Positions 3,350 through 42,913 of a DNA stretch of 43,768 nucleotides are shown here, piece after piece (the stretch's first letter is position 1; every line of letters begins with the position of its first letter). The notes beneath the pieces are model-generated. The model saw only the letters and a list, made by a program, of their open reading frames with translations. It searched no databases and was not told where the DNA came from. The position numbers and the translations under genes were made by a program. Source of the DNA: Aduncisulcus paluster (Eukaryota); contig BQXS01010878.1 in assembly GCA_024181965.1 (NCBI GenBank), positions 1 through 43,768 of the forward strand. The letters run 5' to 3'.

Positions 3350-6300
3350 TCATTCAGATTTTTCGGACTCATCCTCATTTTCAAATGGAGCTCCATTTAA
3401 TGGAGATTGGGCAATGCCACTTGAGGAACCAACAGATTGAAATTCATCAGTTATTCCAGAAGAAGTTATTCCAGATGCACAAAAGGAATGAAAAATGTCC
3501 CCCGATTCACAAATTGAGTTGTGAATCTCTTTCTGTTCAACTGGTTCCACGGTAATAACATGTGAACTATGATATTTGATTTTATGAGTTGTTATAGAAG
3601 AAGGGGAGGAAGGCACAACATTTGAGGCCGACATTAATCGATCTTCTTTCTTTTCTCCAGTACATTTACCCCATTCTTCAATCTCATTTCGATGGCTATC
3701 CATTCCCCGAAGTCTCTGAAGAATCTCTCCACCAACTTGCTCATATTTCTCTTCTTGCAACGTCCAAGTAAATTTACACAATCCAATGTTGTCACCTTTC
3801 ATTGTAATTTCTCTCAAATGAAGTGAATTAAATGTATGAACATGAAATAAAGAAGTCAAAGAGGAATGTTCCATACATTTACCATAATATTTTCTGCAAT
3901 TTTCTTCACAAATTTGAATAATTTCTTCCGGAGAAAAATTCTTCGGCTGCGTTTTAAATTCATATTCATAAATAGATATTAACCAAATACAAGCCAACAT
4001 TGCTCTTTCAAAGTTCTTGACATGTTCCTTGAATTTCTCTATCATTGAAGAAGAATCTGTTTCTTTCCCATGTGTATCAGTGTACAATTTACAAGTTGGA
4101 GATATCAGAGATTCCACTAAAGTTTTTTCTTCCTCATCATTTAATTTACCAGACTTGAGGAATTTGGCCCATTCCATATTGATTTTTGTCATATCGTCCC
4201 ACTTCCATTTTGTGCTGCTAAATGAAAACTTTTTTTCATAGTATATTTCAAGCCATAGTTTTAAAAGATCGTCTTCTTCTTTATCACTTAATCCAGATTC
4301 AAAGAATATGCCCACGATTGACATGATAATATTGAAGATATCTGAATAATATTTGCGTATTTCAGCTGTAAATTTTTCAAATTTGTGAATAACGGTTGAT
4401 CTAACTCCACTATCTTTATCATAATTATGGACATAAACAATGGATGGAACTCGAGAAAGAGAATGATACAATTCGCCCTCAATATCTTCTTGTAACTTCA
4501 TAACTTTAGTATCTTTATAAGTTTGATAAGCCTGTAAATTATACTTTGCGACAATTGCTCCAAGCTCAACACATCCTCGACGTCTCAATGCACGAAATAC
4601 ATCTCGACGGCTATTTTTGTTCCATTGGAATCTGAAATTAGTAGTTCCAGTTCCACATGGAACACTCATGACCCCACCCCCAATACACTTATAAAAGTCT
4701 GTGTAAGTAGATTTTGAAGAGCCATGATGAGGAACAACAAAGAAATTTGTATCCGAAGCCCCAAATTTCTCAAAATATCCTTTTCCAAAAATAGAATCTG
4801 AATCAAGTATTTTGGTTGATTTTTTGTATTTGAAATATTCCATATCACCGGTGAAAAAAGCAGTAAATGGCTGATCAATTGGAGTGAGAGTACGTTTTCT
4901 CACTGTTGATGAGAGGTCTTCTCCTTCTCTGATTGACAATGAAAATGATTTGAAACTTGAGGATTGAGCATGAGAAACTGAAGATTTAGTATCTGAAGAA
5001 TGTTGAGAGAATGAAAATAGAACTCCAATTGAATTTGCATTCTTTTCTAAGGGTTCGTAACAGGGTTTTGGAATAAACAAAGTGATATCAAAGGGACATT
5101 TAAATTGAGGTCTCTCTTCTTCCTCTTCTTCCTCTTCTTCTTCCTCGATTCGAGGTCGTTTGAGTATGGCAATCGAGTTGCCCAAAGATTCCCCATCTTC
5201 TTTTGTGAAATCAGGGTGGAAATTAAATCCTCGATCTTTACAAGTTTTTGTAACAAATTTATCATGATCAGAATTAACTTTGGAGTCATATTCATCTTTT
5301 TTGGGCTTAATAAGAGACAAAATCAGATCTATTTTGGATTTATATTCTTCCGATTTATCCTTCAAATCCTCTAAAATATTCATTTTCTTCCTCCCTTCAT
5401 AATACTTCTTTAAATCATCAGGTGTTTTCAAAGAGAGAAATTCCTTTATCTTGTTTTCATATGAAATACCTTCCCGTTTAACTAATAAATCATCCACATC
5501 CCATTGTTTGATTGTAGCTTCATCAGATAATAATAAATTAACAAGGGGAACCATTCCATCATAACCATTTTTCTCTGACTTGAAAAAGGTTGAGGATTTT
5601 AGCAGAGTTTCGGTTATTTTAGGGAGAGGCTCGAATTTAGGGCGCATAATCACCCTTCCATTCTTTTCGCTTAGTAATTCTTTCAAAACCTGAGACTTTT
5701 CATGTACATATCGATGGTCTTCATGATCATGAGTTTCATAATACTCGAGATAATTTACATCAGAGAGATAATTTTTCAACATTGTCTCAATCTTTTCTAA
5801 ATTCCTCTCTAAACAAATACCTGAATCAATAATCGCTGCATATTCACCACATTTAATGATATAAAAAGCATAATATTCTGATGATCCTGTCATAACATAA
5901 CATATTTCTATATTGGATTTCTTTGTTCCTTCTTTGGAGAGAATGAGTGAGGTATCATCAAACCGAGTCATGGATTTAGGAGAATCAAAAGTAGTTCCTG
6001 AGAAATACTGGGAATTATTGAGAGATTTCCGATCCAAGGGGCCCTTTGTTATTTTTTTTGGAGAGGGAAATTCAGGTTTGATAGTTTCTTGTTTTTTCTC
6101 AGGACTAACTCCTAACGGAAGGATTTGTAGAGCAAGAGCCTGCGATTTATCAACAATTGCCTTGGATTTCTCGAGTTCTTTCTCCAATTCCTTAATTTTG
6201 TCTTCTAAGACCCTATTTTTTTTCTTCTGTTCTTCAGTTTGATATGTTAATGATCTATTTTTCCTTGATAGGTCTTTTTCTTTTTCCGATCTAGGAAGAA

Positions 6301-6703
6301 GAGAAATGTGGGAGAAATAGATATTACAAGCAGCATCTTCCGGAACTGATATTGTACACTTTTTAATATCAGGCAGATAAACAGGAAGGAAATGATTATG
6401 TGAAGGTCCTTCAAAAGAATGTGGTGTTGGAAATGGCGTGTCGTTCATATCGAATAGGGTCAAATTGAACTTAGCTTTACATTGTCCATCCTTTTTCTTG
6501 AGCTTAAACGACATAAATATTACATTTAAATATACAGGATCAAATGTAAGTTCTATGAATGAAAGACAAACATTTGGGCTGTTAAAAGGATCTAAAACTT
6601 TTTTGAGAATCTCAGATCTATCCGTTCCACCAGACATTGCTATTTGTGACTTGAACTGAATCTCCTTAATACAGTCTAAAATAGTGAACTTTTCTTCCTC
6701 CAT
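3350..6703 (-). CDS. Lineage-specific N-terminal domain + coiled coil + ComEC/Rec2-type metallo-beta-lactamase-fold hydrolase
   Basis: Ordered MBL motifs AAIIDSG, THDHEDH (HxHxDH, 5714-5734), NANSIGV, FTGDME, VVPHHGS, VPCG. Residues ~25-135 align by eye with the repeat unit of 14155..15258 and 40451..42913. Residues ~140-190 are heptad-like. Confidence 0.8.
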   Translation of the reverse strand: MEEEKFTILDCIKEIQFKSQIAMSGGTDRSEILKKVLDPFNSPNVCLSFIELTFDPVYLNVIFMSFKLKKKDGQCKAKFNLTLFDMNDTPFPTPHSFEGPSHNHFLPVYLPDIKKCTISVPEDAACNIYFSHISLLPRSEKEKDLSRKNRSLTYQTEEQKKKNRVLEDKIKELEKELEKSKAIVDKSQALALQILPLGVSPEKKQETIKPEFPSPKKITKGPLDRKSLNNSQYFSGTTFDSPKSMTRFDDTSLILSKEGTKKSNIEICYVMTGSSEYYAFYIIKCGEYAAIIDSGICLERNLEKIETMLKNYLSDVNYLEYYETHDHEDHRYVHEKSQVLKELLSEKNGRVIMRPKFEPLPKITETLLKSSTFFKSEKNGYDGMVPLVNLLLSDEATIKQWDVDDLLVKREGISYENKIKEFLSLKTPDDLKKYYEGRKKMNILEDLKDKSEEYKSKIDLILSLIKPKKDEYDSKVNSDHDKFVTKTCKDRGFNFHPDFTKEDGESLGNSIAILKRPRIEEEEEEEEEEERPQFKCPFDITLFIPKPCYEPLEKNANSIGVLFSFSQHSSDTKSSVSHAQSSSFKSFSLSIREGEDLSSTVRKRTLTPIDQPFTAFFTGDMEYFKYKKSTKILDSDSIFGKGYFEKFGASDTNFFVVPHHGSSKSTYTDFYKCIGGGVMSVPCGTGTTNFRFQWNKNSRRDVFRALRRRGCVELGAIVAKYNLQAYQTYKDTKVMKLQEDIEGELYHSLSRVPSIVYVHNYDKDSGVRSTVIHKFEKFTAEIRKYYSDIFNIIMSIVGIFFESGLSDKEEDDLLKLWLEIYYEKKFSFSSTKWKWDDMTKINMEWAKFLKSGKLNDEEEKTLVESLISPTCKLYTDTHGKETDSSSMIEKFKEHVKNFERAMLACIWLISIYEYEFKTQPKNFSPEEIIQICEENCRKYYGKCMEHSSLTSLFHVHTFNSLHLREITMKGDNIGLCKFTWTLQEEKYEQVGGEILQRLRGMDSHRNEIEEWGKCTGEKKEDRLMSASNVVPSSPSSITTHKIKYHSSHVITVEPVEQKEIHNSICESGDIFHSFCASGITSSGITDEFQSVGSSSGIAQSPLNGAPFENEDESEKSE

Positions 6704-7266: not shown

Positions 7267-9934
7267 TTATTTCCTCAAACTTTCGAGTACTTTGGCGATG
7301 CAAGCAGCTGCTTCATCAGCGTATCTAAAGCATGGGACTCCAATTTCTTCACGACATTTGGCAGAAAACTCGTCATATTTCCATCCACCTTCCATCGACA
7401 CCACAATAGGTTTCTCAGTGGATTTGTTGACCTGGTCGATACGCCTCAGGAGTGACTTGGGATCATCCAAATCCTCTCTTCCATCACTGAGTTCTTTGGA
7501 CATTGTACTCAAGGTTCCAGCTTCGGGGACAACACTGAACAAGCCAATGTCGACTTCTTTGGCCTCAACAAGGGCCTGCATGAGCTCATACCATCCATCA
7601 GTTCCAAGCATTGGTGTGACATCCAAAACATCAGAAATATCCACGACAGCACCGAGTTTGTGTCTCCCATAAATATCACTGAGAATTGCACCAGTTTCAC
7701 GACTCCATGAACTCAAAGCATGTGATGATGGATCACGGGCGAACAGATGGTCAGCAATGGCAGTCTTCTCGAATCCAGCGTTACTGCATGCAGTCACATG
7801 GACAATGCCTTCCTTCTGCATCTTCTTAGAGAGAGTCTTGATCTTGGGACCCCACAGACCGAGAAGCATCATTGTGTTCTCAAATTCACGGGCAGTATCG
7901 ACAACAATAGCTCCAGCCTGGACCATCTTATCACTGAACATACCATAATCTCCAGCCATGGCGGCAGTGTGACCCTTGGCAGCCTCCTGGCCCTGCTTGC
8001 TCCTTCCAGCCTTGTAAATAACAACNNNNNNNNNNNNNNNNNNNNCAATGCCTTCCTTCTGCATCTTCTTAGAGAGAGTCTTGATCTTGGGACCCCACAG
8101 ACCGAGAAGCATCATTGTGTTCTCAAATTCACGGGCAGTATCGACAACAATAGCTCCAGCCTGGACCATCTTATCACTGAACATACCATAATCTCCAGCC
8201 ATGGCGGCAGTGTGACCCTTGGCAGCCTCCTGGCCCTGCTTGCTCCTTCCAGCCTTGTAAATAACAACAGATTTACCCATAGAACGGGCATCTTTGATCA
8301 ATTTCATCAATCTCACACCCTCTTCCTCTTTCAGCCCTTCGATATAGAGTCCAAAGGCATCGATTTCCTTGGTTTCAGGAGCAGTGTCATGGTGCAAGAA
8401 ATACTCAAGGAAGTCACAAACACTCATGTCCAGCTGGTTACCAACAGATACAGACACACGGGGGTTGACAATGTTGGCCATATCTCCGAGACGAGAGATC
8501 ATGAAGGCTCCACTCTGACAGATAATGGCAGAATTGGAACTTCCACGACCAGTTTTTGAGGACTTCTCAGAGGGAGTGAAAACAGTGTTCACACCAATGC
8601 CATCGTAAATGCATCCAAGGGTGTTGGGACCATTAATGACTGGACGAGGACGACCAGCAGCATCTGCTTCCGCGAGTTTCTTCTCAACTTCATGTTGAAG
8701 GGCAGCTCCTTTCTCTGTTTCAGCAAATCCACCAGAGATTGCAAGGACAGCTTTGGCAGCATTCTGTTCGATAGTGTCTTGAATGAGTCCTCCCAGCAGC
8801 AGCAGGAACACCAATGACCATAAGATCGACTGGTTCTCCTTTACGTTTGGCAAGAAGGTCAGAGATACTAGATGCACATGGGAATCCTTGGATATCCTTG
8901 GATTTGGGGTGGATCGGATAGAGCTGTTTCGTGTCAACACTGGAATTGGGTGCATCGGCAAGCTTACGAAGAATAACTGAGCAGGAATTGTTGGGATTCT
9001 TCGAACTAGCACCAATAACAGCAGCACTCTTAGGTCTTAGAAGAGCTTCAATCTGTTTGACGGGTTTACGAGTCTTGAAATCACTTGACATGGCGAGTTT
9101 ATCCTCTGAAATATTGAAGTTGGGATTCTCCTCAACCCTCATCACACCATCAAGGGCTAAGAGCTTTCCATCGCAGGTAACAGCGGGATTAACCTCAATT
9201 TCACGCACGACGTACCTGGCATCGGGGTTATTAACGGAATAGTGACGGACAATGTTCTGCATGGCCTTGAGAGAATTGGCAATAGCTCCATCGTCAACAC
9301 GACGTTTCATTCCTCTAACTTTACCTGTAAGCATCTCAGAGGCCGGTAACTTGTCGAGAGCATCGCGGATGACAGAGTCAACATCAATATCAAGAGCAGC
9401 AGGAATGAAGACCTGGGCAGGACGGCTCTTTGAGAATACATCTTTAGCGTACTCAACACCAGTCCCTCCGACACCAAAGGCAAGAGTGGGACCGAAGAAT
9501 GGGTCCTCATAGGCGGACAAAAGCCATTCACCACCACCGAGACCACCTTTATCAAAACCAAGCTGTTCAGCGAATAAAACACCTTCTAATTGCATATCAT
9601 TGAATTTTTTGGCAAACATATCAACGGTTTCAGCGGCATTTTCAGCAGTAACATTGAAAGTTACGGCCCCAATATCGGTTTTATGAGTACAACCTGTAAT
9701 GGTGGCTTTAGCAACGTACTTTTTACCAGAATCAAGGGCAGAAGCCAGAGAACTCACATGTTTAGAGATAGGGTGGAAATATCTATCTGGAAGTTCCATT
9801 CCAGCAGCTTCTAAGACCTCGTACACCTCATGCTCATTCAGGAGCTTATCGGGACGACCAGCCCCCAAGGAAAGAAGATGTTCAATCTTTGGGAGTGATT
9901 TCGCATGCTGAGAAAGAAAAACCGGTGCTGACAT
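7267..9934 (-). CDS. acs: ADP-forming acetyl-CoA synthetase (acetate-CoA ligase), beta-alpha fusion; split by a 1-nt frameshift and an assembly gap
   Basis: ATP-grasp part: LNEHEVYEVL, THKTDIGAV, EIEVNP, LALDG. CoA-binding part: LLRPKSAAVIGAS, YPIHPK, ISGGFAE, INGPNTLG. Ligase part: ICQSGA, VSVGNQLD, LYIEG, YKAGRS, phospho-His GHTAAMAG, SNAG. The frame changes at ~8792-8795 (VIGVPAAA / GGLIQD). About 807 aa after removing the 243-nt gap duplication. Confidence 0.88.
7803..8268. other. Assembly gap (N 8026-8045) with duplicated flanks
   Basis: 7803-8025 is repeated at 8046-8268. Confidence 0.95.
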
Positions 9935-10281
9935 TTGGTAAACGTCAAAAACTGCCTTCAATAATGCTGGTGACTTTTTTAGAACTATCAATAGAGGTAA
10001 AGTATTTTGAAAAATAGTTCGGTGAGCATTATATCTTCCTGATTATTTTAATTTTAATATGAAATTAGAATATAAATGCATGATTGACCGAAATAAGAAA
10101 TCCATTTTAAATCCTAAATAAGACACTTGATGTATTCTAACTTATTGAATTTATCATTTATATACCCATTTAAACTCAATAAAAGAACAAAATCAGTGAT
10201 TATTTTTTAAACAAATCTTCTAGCGAAACTGATTGCATTATAACCAGCTTTGAAAGCATTTATAATCATATCTTGAATTAA

Positions 10282-13200
10282 ATGTCATCTATTCAAGATT
10301 TTATTCAACAATTTGGAGGATTTGACTTCAAATCTGAGATGGATACTGAGATAACTGAAGCCAAATTGATTTCTCTCCTTGATCAGTGTAAAAAGGAATT
10401 TGAATCAAAAGAAGATGTTAAAATGAAAGAACATGCAGGAATTAAAATATCAGAAACTGAAATTGAGATTCTACGGATGCTCTATTCAGGATTTGAATCT
10501 GGTCGTTTGAATATTACTAATTTCCCCCTTTTATCTCCATTTTTTCAACATAGATATGGTGTAATTCGTCTATTTACTGCCATGTGTGTCTTTCGTTCTC
10601 ACATGGTTGGTGGAGAGTGTGAGAAGTGTCATCTTCTCATTGATTCTCTTGATTCTTGGAAAGTTGAAGATAATAATTACACTTGGCTTCCTAAATATGT
10701 CAATCAATTGAAAGAAATGACATCAAAGATTGGTTTAGTCGATGCTTCCGCCATGACTATGGATATCGTCGGTTCTGGCGGTAAATCGCCCGAAAGAGAG
10801 GAATTGGCCTCCCATTTCAGCTCTGTCTATTATAAAATAGTCTCTTCTGGCTCAGGGGCTCCCATGATTCTCAAGAAATATGTCACAATGGTGCAAAGTG
10901 GAGTTATGAATTCTCAAATCCCTTCCGAGGGTATTATTTCTGCTCTCTCAAGCCCCCAATCTCTCAATCCAAAGGTATTCTCAGAGCAATCTCAACGCTC
11001 TCTCTCCTCTCTTGGAGGTATTATCGGTATTTCTCTCTCGTCTCTCCAAGGAATGCTCTCGCGCATGAAGAATGATCTTGCCAAGGAAGATGTGTGGACA
11101 GAAGGGTGGGAATTCAGCAAGAACATGTTTGCTGCCATCGTAGGCCACATTCCATCCAATATCTCAGTGTTGGTTGAATCTACTCTCAAGGGAAATGAAT
11201 ATCACTATGCTCTGAAAGTTAAGGAAGAAAGAGAGAAAAGGGAAGAAAGAGAGAAAAGGGAAGGAGGAGAGAAAGAAGAATATGCTTATATTCCATTTCA
11301 GACTCTTTTGGCGTGTGTTTTCTTCCTTTCTCCCCACCTTATCTATCATTCTCCTTGTCCAATCCAAAAGGGTGTCATTAATGCTGTTCGGGAATGGGCA
11401 GCCTCAGAGCGTTGTGAGAAAGAAGAAAGAGAGAGAAGACAACGTCTAATAATAGATCTTGAGAAAGAAGAATATCTCCCACGTCTCTCTCCTCTTCCTT
11501 CCTCTCCTCTTCTTCCATGTGTCAGTGGATTGTTCGATATTTTCTCATTCTCTTCATCTGGGACTGCAATAATCAGCAATCTAACACATGCATATGGTGC
11601 TGCATCTCTTTCTCTCCCTTCCTTAACGATTTGTCTATTAAATGGAGATATTTCTGTTGTTAATGGAGAAGTGTTGGGTGCTTATATCCATCAGTTCACG
11701 CACTATTCTGTATGTGCTGGGCTAGCAAAGGTTCTTGGGGTTTTGTTTGATGGTGAAGTGTTTCAACTGAAGAACTCTTCAATACAAAAGGAAGATCAAG
11801 GAGAAAAACAATGTAATTCCCGGTTCCAATATACTCCATCCAAACTATCCACTCTCTTTTATATCATTTTAAAACTATGTTATGGTGTCAAAGGAGAAGA
11901 AAGAACCCTGTCTGGTTACGTATCTTTCAATCCAAAGACTTTCTCAATCGAAGCTAATAATAGCTCAGAAGCCACAGAGTTTGTGACGAGAGCAATCATG
12001 CAAAGGCATGTTGATTCAATCTTATCTCTTGTTCACATTCTTAGTGAAGAGAAAGAAATGTTCGGCACGGCTCTTATTGGACTTTGTTCAATACTTCCTC
12101 TTGTTTACACACCCAATCAAAGGTTGTTATGTATAAAGTTGAGTGAAAAGTGGTGTAAATATGTCAATACTGATTCTGATCTTGCTAAATTTAGCATCAC
12201 AAAATTAGCTTTTGCTTCCATGGCTTTGTCTCTGAGTATTTTTACTCAAATTCCTTCCCAAGATGCACAAGTTACTCTTATTAAAGAAGCAACAAAGAAA
12301 TTAAGGGAAGAAAGGGAATATAGAAACAATTTATGGCCCTTATTTTCTCAATGTTCTAAAAATAGAATTGAAGAAGAGGATGAAAAGGGGGAGAGGGAAG
12401 AAGAAGAAGGAGAAGACTGTTATATGTATCCAACAATTAGCATTGAGGATTGCATTGGCTTTATTTCTGGTCAAGACGACCATCAAAAGGAAAAGATTCT
12501 TAATATTATTCTTGAAAAAGCTTTGTTGATTATCGAATCAATTTGTTTCAGATGTTTACCTAAAGAATTTGATGAAGTGAAGAAATCTGAGAAAAAGGAT
12601 TCTAAAAAAAGAATTAGAGAAAAAGGGAAAGAACATGAGAAAGAAATGGAGGAATCCCATTCTATTCCGACCCGAGACAAGGATTTATTAGAAATTGAGG
12701 AGATTTCTATCTTGTTCGATAAAGAAAAGGATGAGAAAGAGGCACAATTGGCTAAACATGAGGTATGCAGTGTCATTTCTGCAATTGCTATTTTTAGATC
12801 GGTGTATAATTGTCCAATGTTGGCGAAGAAGTGGTTATCCAATTCTAAAATCCGTATTGAGTCCTCTGTTTCAGATCGTTCCTCTTTCTCATCTTTATCG
12901 TCAATTCTATTTTTGGAACAAGATATTAAGGATGAGAAAGAGAAACTAAGTATCATATCCTCTATTATTTCTGAGAGTTCCTCTTCCTCTTCTCTTTCCT
13001 CCTCTTCTTCCTCTTTATTTAGATATGTTAATATTAATTCTGATTATGCTTCTTTCTTGGAGAAAGATTATCTTCTTATTGGTGTTGCCAGAGAATATAT
13101 GAGGAGTGTCATGAATGAGGAAGAACTTTCCTCTTCTTCTTCTTCTTCTTCTTCTTCTTCTTCTTCCTCTGCTTCCTCTATAAATCATATTGACGATTGG

Positions 13201-14028
13201 GATAAATGGGATGATGAAAAGAAAGAGGAGTTTAGAAGTGCTTATACAAAACTCTCCGATGACCAGAAAAGAGCGTATAAAGAAGAACAAAGAAATAGGA
13301 AATTGCTACATTTCCTGAAGGAGCATTCATATTTCACCTCGGTGTTCCCGTATAGATTGGACACTGTATTAGTTACCAAATTAATCCCGATTGTTCTTCA
13401 GAAACGTCGCATATCCAAATTAATTGGTACTATTATTGAAAATGGAAAGTTATTTATTGATCGCGGACAAATATCTAATTATCGATTGATCAATTCATGC
13501 CTTGCCAAACTTTTCAGTTGTTTCTCACCGGATTCAAGTTTATGGGTGAACAAATTGGTCAATTGTCCTTCTTCCAGACTTGGCAGTTACATCCAACAAG
13601 GACTTGAAATGCCCGAATTAGATCACACTGCCACTCGTGAGAAAGTTTTTGCGGCTCAACAGACAAGTGAACAATGTGTGAGCAAACCGTCCCAACCTGA
13701 GAAAGAAGAAGATCCTGCAAAGAAAGAGCAAGACAAGCAATTGATGTGGCCATCTCCAAAGAAAGAGGTTCTTGAATATGCCCGCTCTGTGTTGGTTTGG
13801 GATGGAACCTTGGAATCGAAACTCGAACAAACACATTCTTCTCCTCCCGTGCAACTTCGATTGGCCGTGTTGAATGCTGTTCTTGACACTCCTGAATTAT
13901 GGACGGGTGTTTTGAAATGGAATCTTAGTTGTATTCTGTGTGCTTGTTTCTCTGGAGTTTTGGGTCCCGAATGGTGGCACAGACATGATATCGAGTTCCT
14001 CGTGAAGCCTTCACATCATATGAAATAA
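10282..14028 (+). CDS. Large hypothetical protein (1248 aa), probably helical, with poly-S and E/K-rich tracts
   Basis: Long uninterrupted ORF flanked by AT-rich spacers; no family recognised. Confidence 0.75.
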   Translation: MSSIQDFIQQFGGFDFKSEMDTEITEAKLISLLDQCKKEFESKEDVKMKEHAGIKISETEIEILRMLYSGFESGRLNITNFPLLSPFFQHRYGVIRLFTAMCVFRSHMVGGECEKCHLLIDSLDSWKVEDNNYTWLPKYVNQLKEMTSKIGLVDASAMTMDIVGSGGKSPEREELASHFSSVYYKIVSSGSGAPMILKKYVTMVQSGVMNSQIPSEGIISALSSPQSLNPKVFSEQSQRSLSSLGGIIGISLSSLQGMLSRMKNDLAKEDVWTEGWEFSKNMFAAIVGHIPSNISVLVESTLKGNEYHYALKVKEEREKREEREKREGGEKEEYAYIPFQTLLACVFFLSPHLIYHSPCPIQKGVINAVREWAASERCEKEERERRQRLIIDLEKEEYLPRLSPLPSSPLLPCVSGLFDIFSFSSSGTAIISNLTHAYGAASLSLPSLTICLLNGDISVVNGEVLGAYIHQFTHYSVCAGLAKVLGVLFDGEVFQLKNSSIQKEDQGEKQCNSRFQYTPSKLSTLFYIILKLCYGVKGEERTLSGYVSFNPKTFSIEANNSSEATEFVTRAIMQRHVDSILSLVHILSEEKEMFGTALIGLCSILPLVYTPNQRLLCIKLSEKWCKYVNTDSDLAKFSITKLAFASMALSLSIFTQIPSQDAQVTLIKEATKKLREEREYRNNLWPLFSQCSKNRIEEEDEKGEREEEEGEDCYMYPTISIEDCIGFISGQDDHQKEKILNIILEKALLIIESICFRCLPKEFDEVKKSEKKDSKKRIREKGKEHEKEMEESHSIPTRDKDLLEIEEISILFDKEKDEKEAQLAKHEVCSVISAIAIFRSVYNCPMLAKKWLSNSKIRIESSVSDRSSFSSLSSILFLEQDIKDEKEKLSIISSIISESSSSSSLSSSSSSLFRYVNINSDYASFLEKDYLLIGVAREYMRSVMNEEELSSSSSSSSSSSSSSASSINHIDDWDKWDDEKKEEFRSAYTKLSDDQKRAYKEEQRNRKLLHFLKEHSYFTSVFPYRLDTVLVTKLIPIVLQKRRISKLIGTIIENGKLFIDRGQISNYRLINSCLAKLFSCFSPDSSLWVNKLVNCPSSRLGSYIQQGLEMPELDHTATREKVFAAQQTSEQCVSKPSQPEKEEDPAKKEQDKQLMWPSPKKEVLEYARSVLVWDGTLESKLEQTHSSPPVQLRLAVLNAVLDTPELWTGVLKWNLSCILCACFSGVLGPEWWHRHDIEFLVKPSHHMK
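13128..13170 (+). repeat. (TCT)n microsatellite encoding poly-Ser
   Basis: Run of tct triplets inside the 1248-aa ORF. Confidence 0.9.
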
Positions 14029-26046: not shown

Positions 26047-26607
26047 GATGGAAATAATAAAACCTTATAATTCAGCTATTCACTTGAAATAATATCTCTA
26101 AGCGGATAAAGTGACTACAAAAGAATAAGAATAAATGGTATTTGTTTCTTGATTTTGATCATATTCCAAGTTAAAGCATATTCATTCATTTTGATAGCAT
26201 TTATCATAATTCAATCTCATATATGGAAGGTTTTGCAAAGAAAGCTGATGGTTCAGTTCGTGTAGTGAAAAAGTTTCGTTCNNNNNNNNNNNNNNNNNNN
26301 NAATTGAGAAAGAATGAAGACGTATTGTTGAAAGTACACAAACAAGATCAGGTTCAAGGTATGGTAATGTGAGATGGAAATAATAAAACCTTATAATTCA
26401 GCTATTCACTTGAAATAATATCTCTAAGCGGATAAAGTGACTACAAAAGAATAAGAATAAATGGTATTTGTTTCTTGATTTTGATCATATTCCAAGTTAA
26501 AGCATATTCATTCATTTTGATCGCATTTATCATAATTCAATCTCATATATGGAAGGTTTTGCAAAGAAAGCTGATGGTTCAGTTCGTGTAGTGAAAAAGT
26601 TTCGTTC
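25976..26607. other. Assembly gap (N 26282-26301) with duplicated flanks
   Basis: 25976-26281 is repeated at 26302-26607, with a mismatch (A26196 vs C26522). Confidence 0.95.
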
Positions 26608-30059: not shown

Positions 30060-33000
30060 CTATTTTCGATGCTTTCTACAGTAAAAACAGGGAGATTCAT
30101 CCTCAAACTTCCATCCAGACTTAAGTGCACATTCGGCATGTACACTCACATCACATGATGATATCCAACATCCGATTGAAGCCCCGTACTCCCCGCATAA
30201 TGCACATTTTAACTTACTTGCTCTTTGCGCACTCCTTGAAGTGTTGAACCACATTGCTCCATATTCTGTCCCATCTAATTGCTCTCCTCTCTCCTCCTCT
30301 CCCTCTCTCTCTTCCTCTCCCTCTCTCTCTTCCTCCTTTTCTTCCTCCTTTTCTTCAGAGACTACGCTTCCTCTGACCTCTGCAGGGCTCGCAGTGTAGG
30401 TCTCGGGGGACAAGAAGGCACACATATAGTGGAAGAAAAGACATGGTTTCTGTGCTGGTAAAGGGTCAGAAGAAAATGGAAGACAGGAAGCTTGAGGAGA
30501 AGGGAGATATGGAGTGATAAAGGGGCTTGTTTCAAGCTTGTGGGGGGTTTTCTCTCCTTCTTTCCTTTCTTTCCCATCAACAAGAGTTGTGGGAATCATA
30601 TCAGTAACAACTGGACCAACTAATGGCCCTAAACTTCCATTCTTGACCATAGATTTAATGGAAGGTAATGACATTGTTTCATGAGTCAAGGATGGGAATC
30701 TTGGATCTACAATCAAAGGCACTCCACCAACACATAACTCACAGGGTTTAGAAGAGCTTCCATACAAACTATCCTTTGGTTGAGAGTCCCAGTAAGGAGA
30801 AAATGATAAAGGAGAGTGGCAAAATGCACAAACACGCATTGATTTGTCAATGGTGTGAACGATGGCTGAATGATAGGATATTAACTGAGAAATATTTAGA
30901 GAACATCCATGGACAGACTTGAGCATATCCACAAGGAAGATTCGAGAAGACTTAACAAGCAAATCAAGACCACGGTGTGCCGAGGAAGAAGAGGAAGAGG
31001 AAGAGGAAGAGGAAGAGGAAGATGAGCTTGAAGATGAGTGTTTTAATACCCATCGCGGAGTGCAAGAGAGNNNNNNNNNNNNNNNNNNNNATGTTGTGAA
31101 CGATGGCTGAATGATAGGATATTAACTGAGAAATATTTAGAGAACATCCATGGACAGACTTGAGCATATCCACAAGGAAGATTCGAGAAGACTTAACAAG
31201 CAAATCAAGACCACGGTGTGCCGAGGAAGAAGAGGAAGAGGAAGAGGAAGAGGAAGAGGAAGAGGAAGAGGAAGAGGAAGATGAGCTTGAAGATGAGTGT
31301 TTTAATACCCATCGCGGAGTGCAAGAGAGAGGAAGAGATCCCATTTCAACGAGAAGATCTTCCTCGATATCCTCTTGGCCTCCTGGGGGTCGGATAAAAT
31401 CACACAAAGGTGATAATGGAAGAATCGGATGAGGGAAAGATTCAGAAAGACCATCAATGATCTTAACAAGCTTCCTATCTTGTTCGGAACAAGATATGGA
31501 ATATAGATTATCAAGATCAGAGGGAGAAAGTAGAGGAGTCCCAGGAACACAATGCAACGGAATATTGAAGACTTCTGTAGTAGTATCCCCAGATTCTGAC
31601 GAAAAAATCTCATGGGGTTTATGTTTATCAGGATTTTTATCCTTATCTTCACTGAATTCACTTTCCCATTGTTTATCGTTCCATTCCAAACCTTCACCGA
31701 GCCAGACCGTGCCTTGATGAGCCAATAAATGTGCAAATTGATAATGATTCTTCTTGGATATTTTTTCTTGAGATTGTTTTTCTTGGGAACGTTTTTCTTG
31801 GGAATGTTGATCGGGTTTCTCCGTCATCTTCTTTCCTTCTTTTCGTTGCTCTGGAACTGAACATTTCTTTCGATCGATTCCCTTTGTAAGTCTGACACTA
31901 AAAGAAGCACACCCGACCACACCCTGGATATCCTCAACGTTATGTATCTCACAGTGTGGAATTGAGGAAGAGGGTGGGAATGGTACAAAAATAGACGAGA
32001 AACTATTAATAGAACGAATGAATTGTGACGATGACTGCTCCTCAGTTTCTTTGATTTCTTCCTCTTGAAGATGTTTATCTTGTTCTTTATCATCTTTCTT
32101 CTTTTTCTCTTCCATGTCCTTTCCTTGATTTGATGAGCCCACCAATGATGGATCTTTCTCTTTAAGAGTTTGTGCGGAACAACACCAAACAGGTCCATAC
32201 ACCCAAATTCCATTCTCATCGGAGAAAAGTCTGTCCACACGGATATATACGGACAACGAAGAGTGAGATGTCTGTGAGTGGGGTGCGAGAAGACACAAAT
32301 CACCCACGGCAACGATCACACATCGTTTCTTAGCGGAGGATGTGGAGTGTAATAGAGATATGGCAAGTTGATCTATTATAAATCCCTTTGTATTGGGTGT
32401 TATATTGGGTTTTATAAGGTATTTATGCATCAAAACCATCGCACAGACAGGGCAGAGTGTTTTTTTCTCAGTGCAACAACATTGTAACGAACGGGGATCA
32501 AGAGGATACGGAATACTCGATTCGTTATAAATATCTATTAATTCTTTGAAAGGGGTGTTCGTAATCCTTTCAATTTCTCCTCGGAGAGTGCAAACTAACG
32601 GATTGGTGGAATCACAAACAACAGTGGAAAAAGACTTTCGTTGATCCTCAGATTTAACAAACATACACAGTTGATTGAATACAAGAGCAAAATCGTATAA
32701 TACAGAAGGATATAGAATTAAATTTGTAATCGCGGGACACACAGGAGAACCGAGGAATTGCAATTCTCGAATGGTGGGGATCCCATGCCGAGCATAATAT
32801 TCTTGCGCTTTTTTGAGACAAACAGATAAACCACTGGTTGAATCGTCATGTTTTGGAAATATTTCAGGAATTTTATCGGGAGATTTGGAAATATGAACAA
32901 TATGTTCAGCTAATACCCAACCACTAATGATGAAAATATTTGGAAATTAAGTGTTAGAGTAAAAATAAAAGGGGAAAGGGGTATATATCCATAAAAACAC

Positions 33001-33513
33001 AAATATTGACATACAATTCGGCATCTTCTTCTTCTTCTTCTTGGAAAAACTCAACAAGATATTCTACTTTGTATCTCGGTTCTCGTTCACTGATAATTGA
33101 AGGCGGGGCTCGCTTGGGATCTGATACAATGGCTGGCCATGGAGAAAATGGTGGTATGTAGGCCCAGATAACATCTCCTGGTGAANNNNNNNNNNNNNNN
33201 NNNNNAAATATGAACAATATGTTCAGCTAATACCCAACCACTAATGATGAAAATATTTGGAAATTAAGTGTTAGAGTAAAAATAAAAGGGGAAAGGGGTA
33301 TATATCCATAAAAACACAAATATTGACATACAATTCGGCATCTTCTTCTTCTTCTTCTTGGAAAAACTCAACAAGATATTCTACTTTGTATCTCGGTTCT
33401 CGTTCACTGATAATTGAAGGCGGGGCTCGCTTGGGATCTGATACAATGGCTGGCCATGGAGAAAATGGTGGTATGTAGGCCCAGATAACATCTCCTGGTG
33501 AAAAAAAGTTCAT
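30060..33513 (-). CDS. Chromatin reader: N-terminal PWWP, central BAH-like, C-terminal extended PHD finger; 2 exons, ~934 aa after removing two gap duplications
   Basis: FSPGDVIWAYIPPFSPWPAIV...YLVEFF...(spliced) EFGWVLAEHI runs into ORF 30964..32763. VAVGDLCLL...VYIRVDRLFSDENGIWVYG is BAH-like. FHYMCAFLSPE...CALCGEYGASIGCWISSCDVSVHAECA...CFYCRKH is an ePHD. Confidence 0.82.
30850..31329. other. Assembly gap (N 31071-31090) with duplicated flanks differing in microsatellite length
   Basis: The GAG/GAA tract is 39 nt (30982-31020) in one copy and 57 nt (31223-31279) in the other. Confidence 0.95.
32889..33502. other. Assembly gap (N 33186-33205) with duplicated flanks
   Basis: 32889-33185 is repeated at 33206-33502. 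Confidence 0.95.
32924..33014 (-). other. Spliceosomal intron (91 nt, phase 2); artefactual second copy at 33241-33331
   Basis: 5' GTATGT, branch-like CTCTAAC about 30 nt before the 3' CATTAG. Removal gives GAA TTT GGT TGG GTA (EFGWV) and joins the PWWP exon in frame to the main ORF. Confidence 0.88.
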
Positions 33514-35910: not shown

Positions 35911-37489
35911 TCATTTCTCATCTTCAAACAATCCAATATCGGTATCAATATCATCTTCATGATATTTTGTTGATACGTGTCGCTTTTCATCAGGATCAAC
36001 AAATTGATCATCCTCTTTTCCGCCAAACAGTTCAAACATCGATTTCCTTTCCTCGGGTGCAAAAAGAATAGAAATATCCTTCTCCCCCACTGGGGAAGCT
36101 TCTACTTTTCTTCTGATACTCCGCCGCCTTGACGGCAACCGTTTAAAAACGGCATATCTATATATGAAAGATGAATCCTTACTTTGCTGGTCCTTTTCAA
36201 TATTTTCGATAACTTTACGAAGTGAATCCATCGCTTTTGTTCCCTTTTTTTGGGTAAAAAATAATTCTCGCTTCTTTCGCGCCATAAATTCTGAAAATAA
36301 TTCAGTTTTCTCTTCCACCAAACTATGTTCACGTGCAATATCCTTGAGTAAAGGGTAATCAACAAGAAATTCTGGCACATTGGTAACCGCATTTTTCAAA
36401 GAGAAGTAATATTTCGCCCCAAAAGTCATTTGTGAAGGGGGCCTTGGGAGTTCTTCAAATTGAATTCTGAAGAGATCATTGCCGATTAGCGGTGGAGTTC
36501 TGTTATCTTCACTCCAACGCCAGGATAAAGCATGTAAATGTGATATAATTGTATCTTTGTCGGGGAAAGTACAAATGAAATACTCTCCATCTTTTAACAA
36601 TTCACTAACATTTCTAAGGAGCATACGAGCACGATCCTCCGATTCCCATGAATAATGGAGAGCGAAATGACATTGAATATAATCAAAAAAAGGAAGGGGT
36701 TGGTGTGAAGATGAAGAACTACGAGATTTCATCTGTGAGGGCTCAAAATACTCACAAAGACGATGTCTAAATGTATCTGCCCATATAATATCCATTTTAG
36801 CAAGTCCTGCAAGACTTCTGGATGAAAATCGTCTCTTTGTATTTCCATCAAGAAGGCCAAACAATACACGACCTTCCAATTCACTTTGAAGGTATTTGTT
36901 ATATCTTCTTGCAGCTTCGAGCAAGGAACCATATGCCACATCAACCAATGCATAATAAAATGGTTTTTTTGCATGTTGGAGAAAATAAAAATCTCCAGCC
37001 TTTCCACCACATATATCGAGAATAGCTCCACCATTATGACAATACATCATCCCCAATTCCTTCTTAATGGCTCTGTTAAATTCAATTGAATGCTTTGATT
37101 CCCTCCTTTCACGATCATCGATAGATCCAGCATAANNNNNNNNNNNNNNNNNNNNCAAACAATACACGACCTTCCAATTCACTTTGAAGGTATTTGTTAT
37201 ATCTTCTTGCAGCTTCGAGCAAGGAACCATATGCCACATCAACCAATGCATAATAAAATGGTTTTTTTGCATGTTGGAGAAAATAAAAATCTCCAGCCTT
37301 TCCACCACATATATCGAGAATAGCTCCACCATTATGACAATACATCATCCCCAATTCCTTCTTAATGGCTCTGTTAAATTCAATTGAATGCTTTGATTCC
37401 CTCCTTTCACGATCATCGATAGATCCAGCATCATGGGTTCCATAAAAAGATGAAATACCTTGAACAACAGCACTATCTGTTGTTTTCAT
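35911..37489 (-). CDS. ABD1: mRNA cap guanine-N7 methyltransferase (RNMT/Abd1), ~426 aa after removing the gap duplication
   Basis: FNRAIKK, ILDICGGKAGD, VDVA, QCHFALHYSWESEDRAR.LL.NVSELLKDGEYFICTFPD, FGAKYYFSL..AV.NVPEFLV, YRYAVFKR. Confidence 0.92.
36858..37431. other. Assembly gap (N 37136-37155) with duplicated flanks
   Basis: 36858-37133 is repeated at 37156-37431. Confidence 0.95.
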
Positions 37490-39934: not shown

Positions 39935-40044
39935 CCAATTCGATCAAAAATTCAATCTTGATCTATCTCGATAAACGATCGTTATCTGGAAGAATATTGT
40001 GTTTCTTTTGAGTGTTCATTGATAAATAAATTATTTCTGTTGAT

Positions 40045-40249
40045 GATCTGAGCTTTTACCCAGTCGTGGCACGCGACGGTGCCAAAACGTGACGTTTTAA
40101 CAAATTTTATGATTGGAAATCAATTATTATTAATTTGGAAAGTTTAACGATATAAATTTGTTCATACCGAGAGCTACAGAGTCATTTCGATAGGAACCAC
40201 CGATTGTGTGGCACACCGCGCGGTCAGTGACTGAAAGCTCGGCAGATCT
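40045..40249. repeat. Imperfect ~45-bp GC-rich inverted repeats around an AT-rich core (MITE-like or structured RNA)
   Basis: Left arm gatctgagcttttacccagtcgtggcacgcgacggtgcca versus reverse complement of right arm gatctgccgagctttcagtcactgaccgcgcggtgtgcca. Confidence 0.45.
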
Positions 40250-40450
40250 ATTGGTCGTTTTTGTCACAAATAAGTTAATCTTAAATATTAAACTGTGTTT
40301 GTTTTGAATTTTCGTTGTTTAATCGTCTGAAATTTTGTTGTATGTTCTAATTCTGTTCGGATTTGTTCCTTGATTGTTTGGTACTTTTAATGCTTACTGA
40401 GTTGTTTGGTCCACTCAATAATAACAGAAATTGTATAATATATATTCTTA

Positions 40451-42913
40451 ATGGGTTCAACTGTATCTTCTGCACAAATTATACGAATTGAGTACATGCG
40501 TAAAGGAAGTGAAAATTGCTGTCCTATTCCTCTTGATTCCCCCAATATTAAGAATCCTGAGTACGAAATTATTAAAGCGAAAGATGGAACCAAGAAAGAA
40601 GATGGTAAAGGGTATGATCAGAGTTCTAATGCACAAGCAATGATGAAAAGAGATTTTAATCGTGGGCAATTTACCCATATTTCCATTCCTTTCTCAACAG
40701 CTTCCCCAATTAAAGGCATCTATATCTGTTTATTTGGCCATTCTTCAGACTCCCCACCATCTTTTCTTATCTTCACCTTCACATCTTCCGAGGGTGAAAA
40801 AATATCCAAGAGATGCAATTTTGATAGTTTTGATCCTGATGCCAAATACAGAAGGTGGTATCGGCTCCCTATTGATCTATCTGACATCATTTTGTGTGAG
40901 ATTACAGGAAAAGGAAGGAAACAAGAGTATTTTAATATTTTAAACCTTGTTTTCTTCCGAGAAGAAACCTCTGAGGAAACTGTGGTTCGTAAAGCCCAGG
41001 AGAAACTTTGGTCTGAAGCTACAGTTGTGAAACCAGAGTTTATTAAGGAAGGGGGGAAAGATGACATTCCAATTCCCCGTGATCATCCAAAACTTGTCAA
41101 TCCTTATTTCTCAATGGTTAAGGGCAAGAACGATTCGTATGGTAAGGTATCCAAGGAGTATGATCAGAGTTATCAGGCACAAAAAATGTTGAAAGGGGAC
41201 GCTTTGGTATGCTTGTCCCATCTTTCCATTCCTTTCTCATCACCTTGTCCTATGAAAGGTGCTTATATCTGTGTGGAAGAGCCTCATGGTTCACCCTCCC
41301 TTCTTTTGACTTTCACTGATTGTGATGGCAAGAAGACATCCAAAAAGTATGAATTTCCAATTTGGCCAAAACATGGTTTTGAATGGTATTTTCTTCCTAT
41401 TGATTTGTCAAATATTGTGTTGTGTGAGATTCAAGGGAAAGGAATGTGGCGCGAGAAACAAAGTAGATGTTTCTGGTTGAACTCCCTTGTTTTTCTTCGA
41501 GATGATATTTCATCTCTTCCTCTCTCTTTCTTTCCTTCCAGTTCCTCCAAGAAACCCGTATCAGAACTGTCTTTGGAACTCGCTAAAGGAGAGAAAGAGA
41601 AAGGGGGATCTTCAAAGCACGATTCACTAACCCTGACATCTGCATCCACCATCACTCCTCAGTGCATCATTGGCAGTGGTGGATTTGGGGAGGTTCTTCT
41701 TGTCAAAGTTGATGGCATTCCTTTCCCATGTGTTCTGAAGAAGATGCTTCAGATTGCGGACAAAACTGTTGTGAAAGGGTGTCGGAAGGAGTTTAAAGTG
41801 CAACTCAAGTTGTTTACGAATCCCAAATGTTTCAACCGTATCCCACGTCCTCTGTATATCCTTGACCTGCTTGATTGCGATATGAAAGGTGTGTATGGCT
41901 TCCTGATGGAGTTCTGTGTTGGAGGCAGTGTGAGTGCGTTTGCCAAGCGTTGGTGTGCTGATGGCAAGTATGTGAGTGTTGATGATACTGCTGATGATAG
42001 TGAACCCTCAGACTCAGATTCACTCTATCCCTCCACGCACGCCAATGACAGTGTTGTTGACACTGCTGTGCTTGAAATTAATCCCATGACACTGAACCCT
42101 GTGAAAGTGTGTTCGTTATGTGTTGGGATGATCGAGTGTCTTGATGATGTGTTCACGGCTAAGCCAATGCTTGTGCATCGAGATGTGAAACCTGACAACT
42201 TCCTTGTTCGTGTTGATCCCAAAGATGGGGAATGCTCCGTTGTCCTTGCAGATCTTGGATTCGTGCAGATCCAGGATTCCGTCTCCTCTTCAACATCTTC
42301 CCAACAAATTGATTCCTCAATATCAACCAAAGTGGATAGCAGTGGAAAGAAGGAAACTGAACAAGCTATTGGTTCAAATTGTGGGACTCTTGTTTACAAC
42401 GCGTTTGAAACATTAACGGAAGGTCTTCAAACCCAGAGCAGTGATGCCTATTCTCTTGGATTATCTATCCTTTCTTTATTCACTTGTCTTCCGCCCTTTC
42501 TCGGTCACCCAGGTCTTCGTGGGATCATTGATCGTCTGCAATTCATGACAATGCTGTCCGATTTGATAAAAACTGGTATGTCCCCAAAACTTTCCAGTTC
42601 TCCACTTTTCAAAACACTTTTAACCATTGATGATGGTATGTACGAACCCATTCATAAAGTGTTGAATGAAGTGTTCACAGGTCTTACTTTCCCTGATGCT
42701 GACAAACGCATGAGTGTGCACCAAGCTAGTGTTAAAGTCCAATCCATCAAACCTTTCTTGCCCAAGATCGGAGAAGGCTATGAATGCCCAAACATTGATG
42801 ACATTATCCGTGAGCAACGCAAGAAGTATGGTGGCTCTGTTGGAATCATTGAAGGAATGAGATGTGGTGTTGTTGGTGTTGAGCATGAGGAAGGATGGGA
42901 TCAGAGTCTGTGA
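40451..42913 (+). CDS. Protein kinase fused behind two copies of the lineage-specific domain; N-myristoylation motif (MGSTVS)
   Basis: Residues 1-350 match 14155..15258. Kinase motifs IGSGGFGEV, VLKK, LMEFC, VHRDVKPDNFL, ADLG, GTLVYNAFE, SDAYSLG. Confidence 0.92.
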   Translation: MGSTVSSAQIIRIEYMRKGSENCCPIPLDSPNIKNPEYEIIKAKDGTKKEDGKGYDQSSNAQAMMKRDFNRGQFTHISIPFSTASPIKGIYICLFGHSSDSPPSFLIFTFTSSEGEKISKRCNFDSFDPDAKYRRWYRLPIDLSDIILCEITGKGRKQEYFNILNLVFFREETSEETVVRKAQEKLWSEATVVKPEFIKEGGKDDIPIPRDHPKLVNPYFSMVKGKNDSYGKVSKEYDQSYQAQKMLKGDALVCLSHLSIPFSSPCPMKGAYICVEEPHGSPSLLLTFTDCDGKKTSKKYEFPIWPKHGFEWYFLPIDLSNIVLCEIQGKGMWREKQSRCFWLNSLVFLRDDISSLPLSFFPSSSSKKPVSELSLELAKGEKEKGGSSKHDSLTLTSASTITPQCIIGSGGFGEVLLVKVDGIPFPCVLKKMLQIADKTVVKGCRKEFKVQLKLFTNPKCFNRIPRPLYILDLLDCDMKGVYGFLMEFCVGGSVSAFAKRWCADGKYVSVDDTADDSEPSDSDSLYPSTHANDSVVDTAVLEINPMTLNPVKVCSLCVGMIECLDDVFTAKPMLVHRDVKPDNFLVRVDPKDGECSVVLADLGFVQIQDSVSSSTSSQQIDSSISTKVDSSGKKETEQAIGSNCGTLVYNAFETLTEGLQTQSSDAYSLGLSILSLFTCLPPFLGHPGLRGIIDRLQFMTMLSDLIKTGMSPKLSSSPLFKTLLTIDDGMYEPIHKVLNEVFTGLTFPDADKRMSVHQASVKVQSIKPFLPKIGEGYECPNIDDIIREQRKKYGGSVGIIEGMRCGVVGVEHEEGWDQSL

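Follow-up and report, generated by a model that had tools for sequence, protein, structure and literature searches.

An expanded family of paired, predicted jelly-roll units, alone or fused to a divergent kinase, in the fornicate Aduncisulcus paluster

Results

A repeated two-unit module in two genes of the window

We analyzed a 43,768-nt stretch of DNA (hereafter the window) from Aduncisulcus paluster, a free-living, bacterivorous, microaerophilic fornicate whose draft genome comprises 25,863 contigs and 15,316 predicted proteins (PMC9933649). A sequence-only reading of this DNA had proposed that three of its open reading frames (ORFs), here labeled P0001, P0002, and P0003, share one unnamed beta-rich unit in three architectures, and we compared these three ORFs, all of which we confirmed at the coordinates given below. 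P0002 and P0003 share a pair of related units of ~160 aa, which we distinguish as A-type and B-type; the pair (the A-B didomain) stands alone in P0002, precedes a protein kinase domain in P0003, and belongs to a large family of A. paluster proteins. P0001 probably carries one diverged copy of the unit. The ORFs and the four close copies lie as follows:

3350..6703, minus strand: P0001, 1117 aa; orphan protein combining a probable diverged unit with a helical stretch and with a region, in two parts, that resembles metallo-beta-lactamase (MBL) hydrolases
14155..15258, minus strand: P0002, 367 aa; stand-alone A-B didomain, starting MGC
14725..15201, minus strand: P0002 unit A, residues 20-178 (unit hidden Markov model, HMM)
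14173..14676, minus strand: P0002 unit B, residues 195-362 (unit HMM)
40451..42913, plus strand: P0003, 820 aa; A-B didomain followed by a divergent Ser/Thr-type kinase, starting MGSTVS
40475..40966, plus strand: P0003 unit A, residues 9-172 (BLASTP and unit HMM)
41021..41506, plus strand: P0003 unit B, residues 191-352 (BLASTP and unit HMM)

By BLASTP, P0002 is 62% identical to the first 352 aa of P0003 (345 aa aligned, E 9e-141), and identity between the two units of one protein is 30-33% (E 7e-31 and 1e-23); the unit HMM has 161 positions. The earlier claim that the unit occurs twice in 14155..15258 and twice in 40451..42913, there ahead of a kinase (PF00069), was therefore correct, and of the proposed three-architecture family the two close copies are confirmed, with the third, in P0001, only probable. 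At the DNA level, P0002 and P0003 are 74% identical over 1004 bp. Because this likeness ends within the coding sequence and the flanks show none, we rejected a shared mobile element as the source of the two window copies.

The A-B didomain is amplified in A. paluster

Copy numbers and partner domains were tabulated from protein libraries, and our statements on the range of the family refer to those libraries. A word-indexed protein search recovered 161 proteins at E <= 1e-3 within a 201-643 aa length band, and an exhaustive profile search covering 1.84 billion representatives yielded 165 clusters at 50% identity, 109 of them at E <= 1e-30. All 119 source-named matches from the word-indexed search came from A. 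paluster, as did all 20 of the most distant representatives that we looked up (from the 42 weakest listed), and no A-B didomain family was found in other organisms in the libraries searched. Our working set comprises 266 distinct family proteins with 638 unit matches, and transcriptome-derived records exist for three family members. With 266 proteins or 165 clusters and every named source being A. paluster, the proposal of a lineage-expanded domain holds. The family is not mentioned in the main text of the genome announcement (PMC9933649), and we found no description of it in the literature on A. paluster or on fornicate kinase and gene-family expansions.

Paralogs are 59-78% identical to P0002, and about half of the alignment columns are at least 90% conserved. 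The usual form is a single A-B pair, the unit architecture of 113 of the 266 proteins; longer members repeat the pair or multiply the B unit, and one 2714-aa model has 11 matched stretches, the highest count. Proteins starting with MG account for 23 of the 242 Met-starting members, both window copies also start in this way, and the MGC start of P0002 is one that we take to be acylation-like. A 19-aa stretch with a mean hydropathy of at least 1.8 occurs in only 20 of the 266 proteins, mostly inside strands or the kinase. Most members thus appear to be soluble, stand-alone A-B proteins lacking a signal peptide or membrane span, with a minority having an acylation-like MG start. Three members with three units each (P0009, P0011, and P0096) carry the UniRef label 'NudC domain-containing protein'; they have no CS/NudC Pfam match at E up to 10 and offer no space for a further domain.

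Both units are predicted galactose-binding-domain-like jelly rolls

We modeled P0002 with AlphaFold2, using 71 paralogs as the alignment, and obtained a mean predicted local distance difference test score (pLDDT) of 92.9 and a predicted template modeling score (pTM) of 0.86. Each unit in this model consists of short N-terminal strands, one helix, and a strand-rich core, with strands in unit A at residues 87-106, 112-120, 126-132, 139-160, and 170-174, and a helix at residues 179-194 links the two units. The top Foldseek matches of the model were the tandem CBM32 of ZmpB (E 6.5e-10), BF3416, neuropilin b1b2, and allantoicase. Aligning the model against 48,161 chains with VIA-align, we found 74 chains reaching a Z of at least 8; single-unit matches to both units had Z-scores of 10-12.2 and root-mean-square deviations (rmsd) of 2.4-3.4 Å over 116-151 residues, and included the following:

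BF3416: Z 12.2, single-unit match
APC10: Z 12.1 and 11.6; chain 8a3t_A on unit B (residues 194-367) with Z 12.1, rmsd 3.2 Å, 151 residues
HECTD3 DOC: Z 11.7, single-unit match
F5/8-C: Z 11.6, single-unit match
CBM32 modules, many: Z 10-11.4; chain 2v72_A on unit B with Z 11.2, rmsd 2.5 Å, 116 residues
IFT25: Z 11.2; chain 2yc2_A on unit A (model residues 41-177) with rmsd 2.7 Å, 118 residues
Muskelin discoidin: Z 11.2, single-unit match
HERC2 DOC: Z 10.9, single-unit match
PITHD1: Z 10.8, single-unit match
TXNL1 PITH: Z 10.1, single-unit match

Judged by the model, both units are galactose-binding-domain-like jelly-roll beta-sandwiches, so that structure prediction and fold comparison bear out the earlier suggestion of a possible jelly roll. 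The units have the same beta-sandwich fold as these relatives, and ZmpB CBM32-1/2, neuropilin b1b2, and allantoicase are tandem pairs of such domains too. The A-B units differ in having an extra ~45-residue extension and a helix ahead of the core, and their mutual orientation departs from that of the tandem templates (rmsd 11.9-14 Å over both domains). Unlike those relatives, the A-B family is also predicted from sequence to be intracellular and is massively amplified in one species.

At the sequence level, the unit no longer resembles any named family, as far as profile searches can tell. Pfam searches of P0002 and P0003 (hmmscan, E up to 1) left the unit without a match, including to F5_F8_type_C or CBM32; a search of 26 single units at E up to 10 gave a chance match to DUF4695 (E 0.025) and no other; and eight members searched at E up to 10 yielded no name for the unit. 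Neither ANAPC10 (PF03256) nor PITH (PF06201) was matched in P0002, P0003, or the 26 units. NCBIfam likewise left the unit unnamed, a 71-sequence profile reached a best E of only 1.2 against PDB sequences, and an ESM Atlas feature search with the unit peaked at 0.84, under the level at which matches carry meaning. The domain is therefore unnamed, as had been proposed, and the A-B family has no sequence-level membership in the named galactose-binding-domain-like families.

Variable positions cluster between the predicted strands

In the alignment of 71 proteins, entropy reaches at least 2 bits at 57 of 367 columns. These variable positions cluster at equivalent segments of units A and B (80-84/261-264, 106-110/286-289, 137-140/318, and 162-169/341-353), and setting the entropy against the AlphaFold2 model places the variable segments between predicted strands. 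For the one pair of coding sequences compared, the nonsynonymous rate (dN) is 0.24 and the synonymous rate (dS) is 0.62, a ratio of ~0.39. This ratio does not exceed 1 and so gives no sign of the diversifying selection for which a test had been suggested.

One divergent kinase type is the dominant partner

The C-terminal tail of P0003 matches Pkinase (PF00069, E 6.5e-12, 45.8 bits against a cut-off of 31.7) and, on its sequence, is a member of the eukaryotic protein kinase superfamily. Its HRDVKPDN is presumably a Ser/Thr-type rather than a Tyr-type catalytic loop. The two features of the tail are:

41663..42724, plus strand: P0003 kinase domain, residues 405-758; G-loop at 408, VLK lysine at 430, HRDVKPDN at 576, DLG at 601
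about 42752..42793, plus strand: post-kinase motif of P0003, residues 768-781

The kinase is highly divergent, its best PDB sequence matches, at E 2.7e-4 or worse, being an unnamed Ser/Thr kinase, CDPKs, and PDK1. Pfam identified a kinase in 36 of the 145 representatives scanned (7/42, 16/38, and 13/65), and phmmer identified a tail of the P0003 type in 64 other proteins of the 266. Across 26 full-length tails, the GxGxFG motif, the VLK Lys, the HRD Asp, the Asn, and the DLG Asp are kept in 24-26, so the family kinase looks catalytically competent. The motif P-x-[IVL]-G-[ED]-G-[WFY]-x-C-P follows the kinase in 18 of 29 full-length kinase tails and is loosely like the start of unit A (E-G-x3-C-C-P), but the unit HMM does not match it. 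We also considered whether the C-terminal tail of the kinase mimics the N-terminal extension of the unit (BLAST high-scoring segment pair, HSP, E 0.004) and rejected this, the unit HMM giving -1.8 bits.

To compare kinase-bearing and solo members, we built a FastTree from 98 clean A-B didomains, of which 75 were solo, 19 had a kinase, 3 had another tail, and 1 had thioredoxin. Kinase versus solo required 8 changes, against 14-19 in the ten label shuffles printed, indicating that fused and solo forms interleave; kinase-bearing members lie both near the midpoint root and nested among solos. This distribution suggests that the kinase was repeatedly lost or gained.

Other partners are rare. Among the 145 representatives, Pfam found PARP, leucine-rich repeats (LRR), NYD-SP28, DUF5679, and importin-beta repeats in one family protein each, and a C-terminal thioredoxin domain occurs in two members, P0048 and P0091. 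Four long members (P0124, 3335 aa; P0143, 1061 aa; P0144, 2092 aa; and P0235, 960 aa) have units beside PARP, LRRs, NYD-SP28, or importin-beta, as fusions or as merged gene models. Neither NACHT, NB-ARC, TIR, death-fold, nor any other known immune signaling domain was found in the 145 representatives or in further sets of 3 and 8 proteins; no cullin, HECT, or RING partner was found in the 145 representatives, and no ankyrin Pfam match in any family protein scanned. The unit does occur with more than one partner domain, as claimed, the kinase being frequent and thioredoxin, PARP, and LRR rare; the notion of interchangeable effectors was overstated, since one kinase type dominates and each other partner appears in one or two proteins.

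P0001 probably carries a diverged, core-only unit ahead of an MBL-like region

The features of P0001 that bear on a third architecture are:

6293..6637, minus strand: probable diverged, core-only unit, residues 23-137 (family HMM, hhalign, and MAFFT)
4544..5941, minus strand: MBL-like region, residues 255-720 (motifs and Atlas look-alikes)
5714..5731, minus strand: HDHEDH, residues 325-330
4718..4732, minus strand: PHHGS, residues 658-662

Close-range comparisons gave little. BLASTP of P0001 against P0002 returned an 18-aa HSP only (E 0.003), which weighs against a third copy, and against P0003 it returned nothing. The check proposed in the sequence-only reading, an HMM of the four close copies, failed: it gave 1.2 bits on P0001 and 5.0 bits on residues 1-145, a score reached by 13 of 2000 shuffles. 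The four short strings that had been quoted from P0001 are all present and collinear, but the strings set against them are a composite of P0002 unit B, P0003 unit B, and P0002 unit A.

The score climbed as divergent members were included, from 8.2 bits with a 214-unit HMM to 16.6 bits (E 2.8e-7 for one target) with a family-wide HMM of 642 unit sequences that excluded P0001, positions 43-140 of which align to P0001 residues 23-122. Rebuilding the HMM with P0001 explicitly excluded gave 16.5 bits, and divergent members alone gave 15.7 bits. P0001 has an E of 1.7e-5 among the 61 window ORFs of at least 100 aa (next-best ORF, 4.2 bits), 2.7e-4 among the 955 six-frame ORFs of at least 25 aa (next-best, 5.5 bits), and about 4e-3 when scaled to 15,316 proteins. 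Taken by themselves, residues 1-145 reach 21-22 bits (21.7 in the comparison with controls), and no shuffled or reversed sequence came near this score: the highest value was 9.5 among 2000 shuffles and 7.4 among 562 reversed units. Undisputed diverged units within family proteins score in a comparable range, 18-34 bits, and the 6 of 267 non-unit segments that reach at least 16.6 bits all lie in divergent multi-unit members and are probably unrecognized units. HMMER, hhalign (probability 48.6%, E 1.8e-4, 90 columns), and MAFFT (10-23% identity to the units) agree on an identical collinear register over ~100 residues, in which P0001 retains the invariant Phe but lacks both the near-invariant Trp and the ~45-residue N-terminal extension. 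An AlphaFold2 model of the P0001 N terminus made with the family alignment (pLDDT 75.1) shows helix and strand order as in the unit and the same class of structural matches, with a best Z of 7.9 and none of at least 8; as the model is driven by the family alignment, it is not an independent test of the fold.

We conclude that the N terminus of P0001 is probably homologous to the unit and would then represent a third architecture; the earlier claim of a diverged unit is favored by the family-wide HMM and fails with the four-copy HMM. Alternatively, only two architectures may exist: the P0001 N terminus would be beta-rich but unrelated, and the short FLPxxLxD...C.I-like string that it shares would have arisen by chance or convergence. 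The missing Trp and extension, the failing four-copy HMM, the 18-residue BLASTP alignment, the hhalign probability below 50%, the alignment-driven model, and the lack of relatives of P0001 to bridge the gap all point that way and weigh against homology. The rise in score with divergent members, the shuffled and reversed controls, the gap to the next-best window ORF, the shared register with its invariant Phe, and the like scores of undisputed diverged units speak against coincidence, and we regard this alternative as doubtful, though it deserves to be kept in mind. We found no relatives of P0001 in the 614-1955 aa band of the protein libraries, none longer than 254 aa with the N terminus alone as the query, and at most 11.4 bits in a phmmer search against the 267 proteins in hand.

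Downstream of a coiled coil, which was read by eye, P0001 has collinear IIDSG (291), HDHEDH (325-330), FTGD (617), and PHHGS (658) strings, which we take to be MBL motifs (HDHEDH as HxHxDH), and the best Atlas embedding look-alikes of P0001 are Lactamase_B (PF00753) clusters (0.95, 171 shared features). The region differs from MBL-fold hydrolases in that an insert of ~280 aa parts its two halves and in that it lacks a profile match to Lactamase_B; Pfam matched neither the whole protein nor three sub-segments, and no NCBIfam or PDB sequence match was found. We call it MBL-like on the strength of the motifs and the embedding look-alikes. Its standing as an output of the family was not upheld, P0001 being one orphan protein, with a unit that is no more than a probable homologue.

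Discussion

A candidate family of adaptors and kinase-targeting modules

On balance, and with moderate confidence, we interpret the A-B proteins as a lineage-specific jelly-roll family of binding or targeting adaptors, used alone or fused to a kinase. This interpretation starts from the observed repeat, fold class, expansion, architectures, and intact kinase motifs, and from these we infer a binding function, a cytosolic location, and a relationship between adaptors and kinases. The working form would be a fixed pair in which a linker helix joins an A-type to a B-type unit. Amplified in A. paluster to hundreds of genes, this pair would serve as a target-binding or localizing module whose conserved core bears a handful of variable loops at equivalent places in A and B. 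In the fused forms (about a quarter of members appear to carry the C-terminal, family-specific divergent kinase), the didomain may bring the kinase to a target or gate it there; kinase-less forms may act as adaptors or competitors for the same targets. The degenerate unit copy in P0001 would be a one-off domain recruitment.

The proposed logic is that of the Nek kinase and Protein 21.1 families of the related Giardia. These are large, dynamic families thought to serve subcellular targeting (PMC3218828). In Giardia, as here, kinases of a fornicate are fused to interaction modules and accompanied by a kinase-less sister family, and members gain or lose the module or the kinase in evolution (PMC3218828). 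The module is an A-B jelly-roll didomain in A. paluster and TALM-ankyrin repeats in Giardia, and it lies N-terminal to the kinase in the A-B family versus C-terminal in the Giardia Neks. No Nek is among the best PDB sequence matches of the A-B family kinase (E 2.7e-4 or worse).

Several points weigh against this interpretation. The fold class spans sugar-, lipid-, and degron-binding domains, so the fold is silent on what the unit binds. Galactose-binding-domain-like domains bind ligands via loops at one end. The variable loops of the A-B units would all lie at one end of the sandwich, but this is a topological inference from the model, and it depends on reading strands 87-106 and 139-160 as hairpins, as the match to eight-stranded folds requires. 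The assembly is fragmented and many entries are 'partial', so solo and kinase labels can err at contig ends, and many of the long 'fusions' may stem from genes merged during modeling; the tree was made rapidly with FastTree, rooted at the midpoint, and built on fragmentary gene models. The Giardia analogy is also a loose one: catalytic residues are kept in 24-26 of 26 A-B tails, whereas 71% of Giardia Neks are inactive (PMC3218828).

Alternative roles of the didomain

The fold invites two further readings. The didomain could be a CBM32- or discoidin-like lectin, making the family one of cytosolic carbohydrate binders and glycan-regulated kinases that sense prey or endogenous glycans. The best structural matches include the sugar-binding CBM32, F5/8-C, and fucolectin modules, the tandem CBM32 pair 7jnd/7jnb is matched by Foldseek (E 6.5e-10) and VIA-align (Z 13.4), and an Atlas CBM32 cluster at 0.82 is a lead only. 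Z-scores, however, do not tell lectin branches apart from the DOC, PITH, and IFT25 branches, which are intracellular (APC10/DOC, IFT25, muskelin, PITH, and XRCC1-N fall within about 1-2 Z units of CBM32), no Pfam CBM32 or F5_F8_type_C match was found in the 26 units, P0002, or P0003, and without a signal peptide the usual extracellular glycans would be out of reach; we consider a lectin unlikely. The same overlap in Z-scores, which does not set DOC/PITH apart from CBM32, bears on descent from DOC- or PITH-type ubiquitin-proteasome domains, with the didomain as a substrate or proteasome receptor module. APC10 (Z 12.1 and 11.6), the DOC domains of HECTD3, HERC2, and CUL7 (Z 10.8-11.7), PITHD1 (Z 10.8), and the PITH of TXNL1 (Z 10.1) are among the structural matches, and thioredoxin in P0048 and P0091 recalls TXNL1, in which thioredoxin is N-terminal to the PITH domain. 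The thioredoxin of P0048 and P0091 is C-terminal, though, Pfam gave neither an ANAPC10 nor a PITH match, and the absence of cullin, HECT, and RING partners from the 145 representatives fits poorly with such a module; we rate this descent as very unlikely.

A different reading takes the family as a diversified intracellular sensor-effector system for immunity or conflict, in which jelly-roll loops sense prey, symbiont, or viral molecules and kinase, MBL, PARP, and other domains provide outputs. The very large single-lineage expansion, the confinement of variable positions to a few loops on a conserved scaffold, a dN/dS of ~0.39 that by general knowledge lies above usual housekeeping values, a tree in which the kinase is repeatedly gained or lost, the occasional PARP, LRR, and thioredoxin partners, and the probable unit copy on the nuclease-like MBL protein P0001 are what such a system might show. 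Against it stand the lack of NACHT, NB-ARC, TIR, and death-fold domains in the proteins scanned, the near-uniform fusion to one kinase type, the 59-78% identity of paralogs to P0002 with about half of the columns at least 90% conserved, the dN/dS not above 1 in the sole pair available, and the Giardia Nek and 21.1 expansions, comparable ones that are tied to cytoskeletal targeting and not to immunity (PMC3218828). An immune or conflict role is speculation, and we judge the sensor-effector reading quite unlikely. Of the earlier picture of a ligand-sensing, immune-like family in a bacterivorous anaerobe, what survives is a bacterivorous microaerophile; the immune role was left without support, there being no immune signaling domains in the proteins scanned and a dN/dS of ~0.39 for the one pair compared.

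Two known receptor types sharpen the comparison. DDR1 and DDR2 carry a discoidin domain and a discoidin-like domain upstream of a kinase in one polypeptide, and P0003 likewise has a discoidin-fold pair upstream of a protein kinase. Unlike DDR1 and DDR2, P0003 lacks a signal peptide, and no membrane span separates its didomain from its kinase, as judged from sequence and hydropathy, and we found no sequence relation between them. The NACHT/NB-ARC, TIR, and death-fold domains of NLR/STAND receptors are absent from the A-B proteins scanned, and LRRs occur in one of the 145.

Implications

The adaptor and kinase-targeting interpretation would concern a sizable part of the organism: one unannotated family makes up ~1-2% of the predicted proteome of A. 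paluster (266 proteins versus 15,316). For this family we provide the fold, the definition of the module as an A-B pair, and the dominant partner, a family-specific kinase predicted to be active, together with an HMM and a structural reference by which hundreds of 'hypothetical proteins' can be annotated, and the family adds an intracellular, sequence-orphan branch to the galactose-binding-domain-like superfamily. Our findings suggest that families combining an interaction module and a kinase with kinase-less siblings arose at least twice in fornicates from different building blocks. This bears on the organization of signaling and on whether the Nek and 21.1 families of Giardia expanded as an adaptation to parasitism or through an older tendency of the lineage.

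A further-reaching idea, which we rate as very unlikely, is that the A-B family is a protist-invented, cytosolic, diversified recognition repertoire for non-self or prey ligands that signals via a dedicated active kinase. Hundreds of paralogs would then present variable apical loops on a discoidin-like scaffold. Phagosomes, symbionts, or viruses would release the ligands, which could be glycans, lipids, or proteins; kinase-less copies would be decoys or adaptors, and nuclease-like MBL, PARP, and thioredoxin domains would be occasional outputs, amounting to a system like innate immunity made from parts unrelated to NLRs or TIR proteins.

Other features of the window

The content of the window is eukaryotic, with SET, PPPDE/PUL, DnaJ, RRM, Snf7, and PA28 proteins identified by domain searches, alongside a cap N7-methyltransferase, a canonical kinase, HydG, and an ADP-forming acetyl-CoA synthetase. 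A 1248-aa ORF at 10282..14028 on the plus strand adjoins P0002 and has no Pfam, NCBIfam, or unit-HMM match.

Six 20-N scaffold gaps each lie between direct duplications of 221-306 bp, at 7803..8268, 16032..16583, 25976..26607, 30850..31329, 32889..33502, and 36858..37431; the duplicated copies are 99.7-100% identical at five gaps and 92% identical at one. They look like overlapping contig ends left unmerged, that is, assembly artefacts, and they coincide with apparently split genes (HydG, the ADP-forming acetyl-CoA synthetase, and the cap methyltransferase), while the genes for P0001, P0002, and P0003 are untouched by all six.

The [FeFe]-hydrogenase maturase HydG lies at 16259..17761 on the minus strand (TIGR03955, E 6.3e-111), and a second ORF on the same strand, 15772..16248, repeats the C-terminal BATS part of HydG, most likely through the gap duplication at 16032..16583. 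The ADP-forming acetyl-CoA synthetase is represented by two overlapping minus-strand ORFs, 7267..9027 and 8720..9991, in a region where G+C rises to 0.457 (bin 8001-10000) from ~0.37 on either side.

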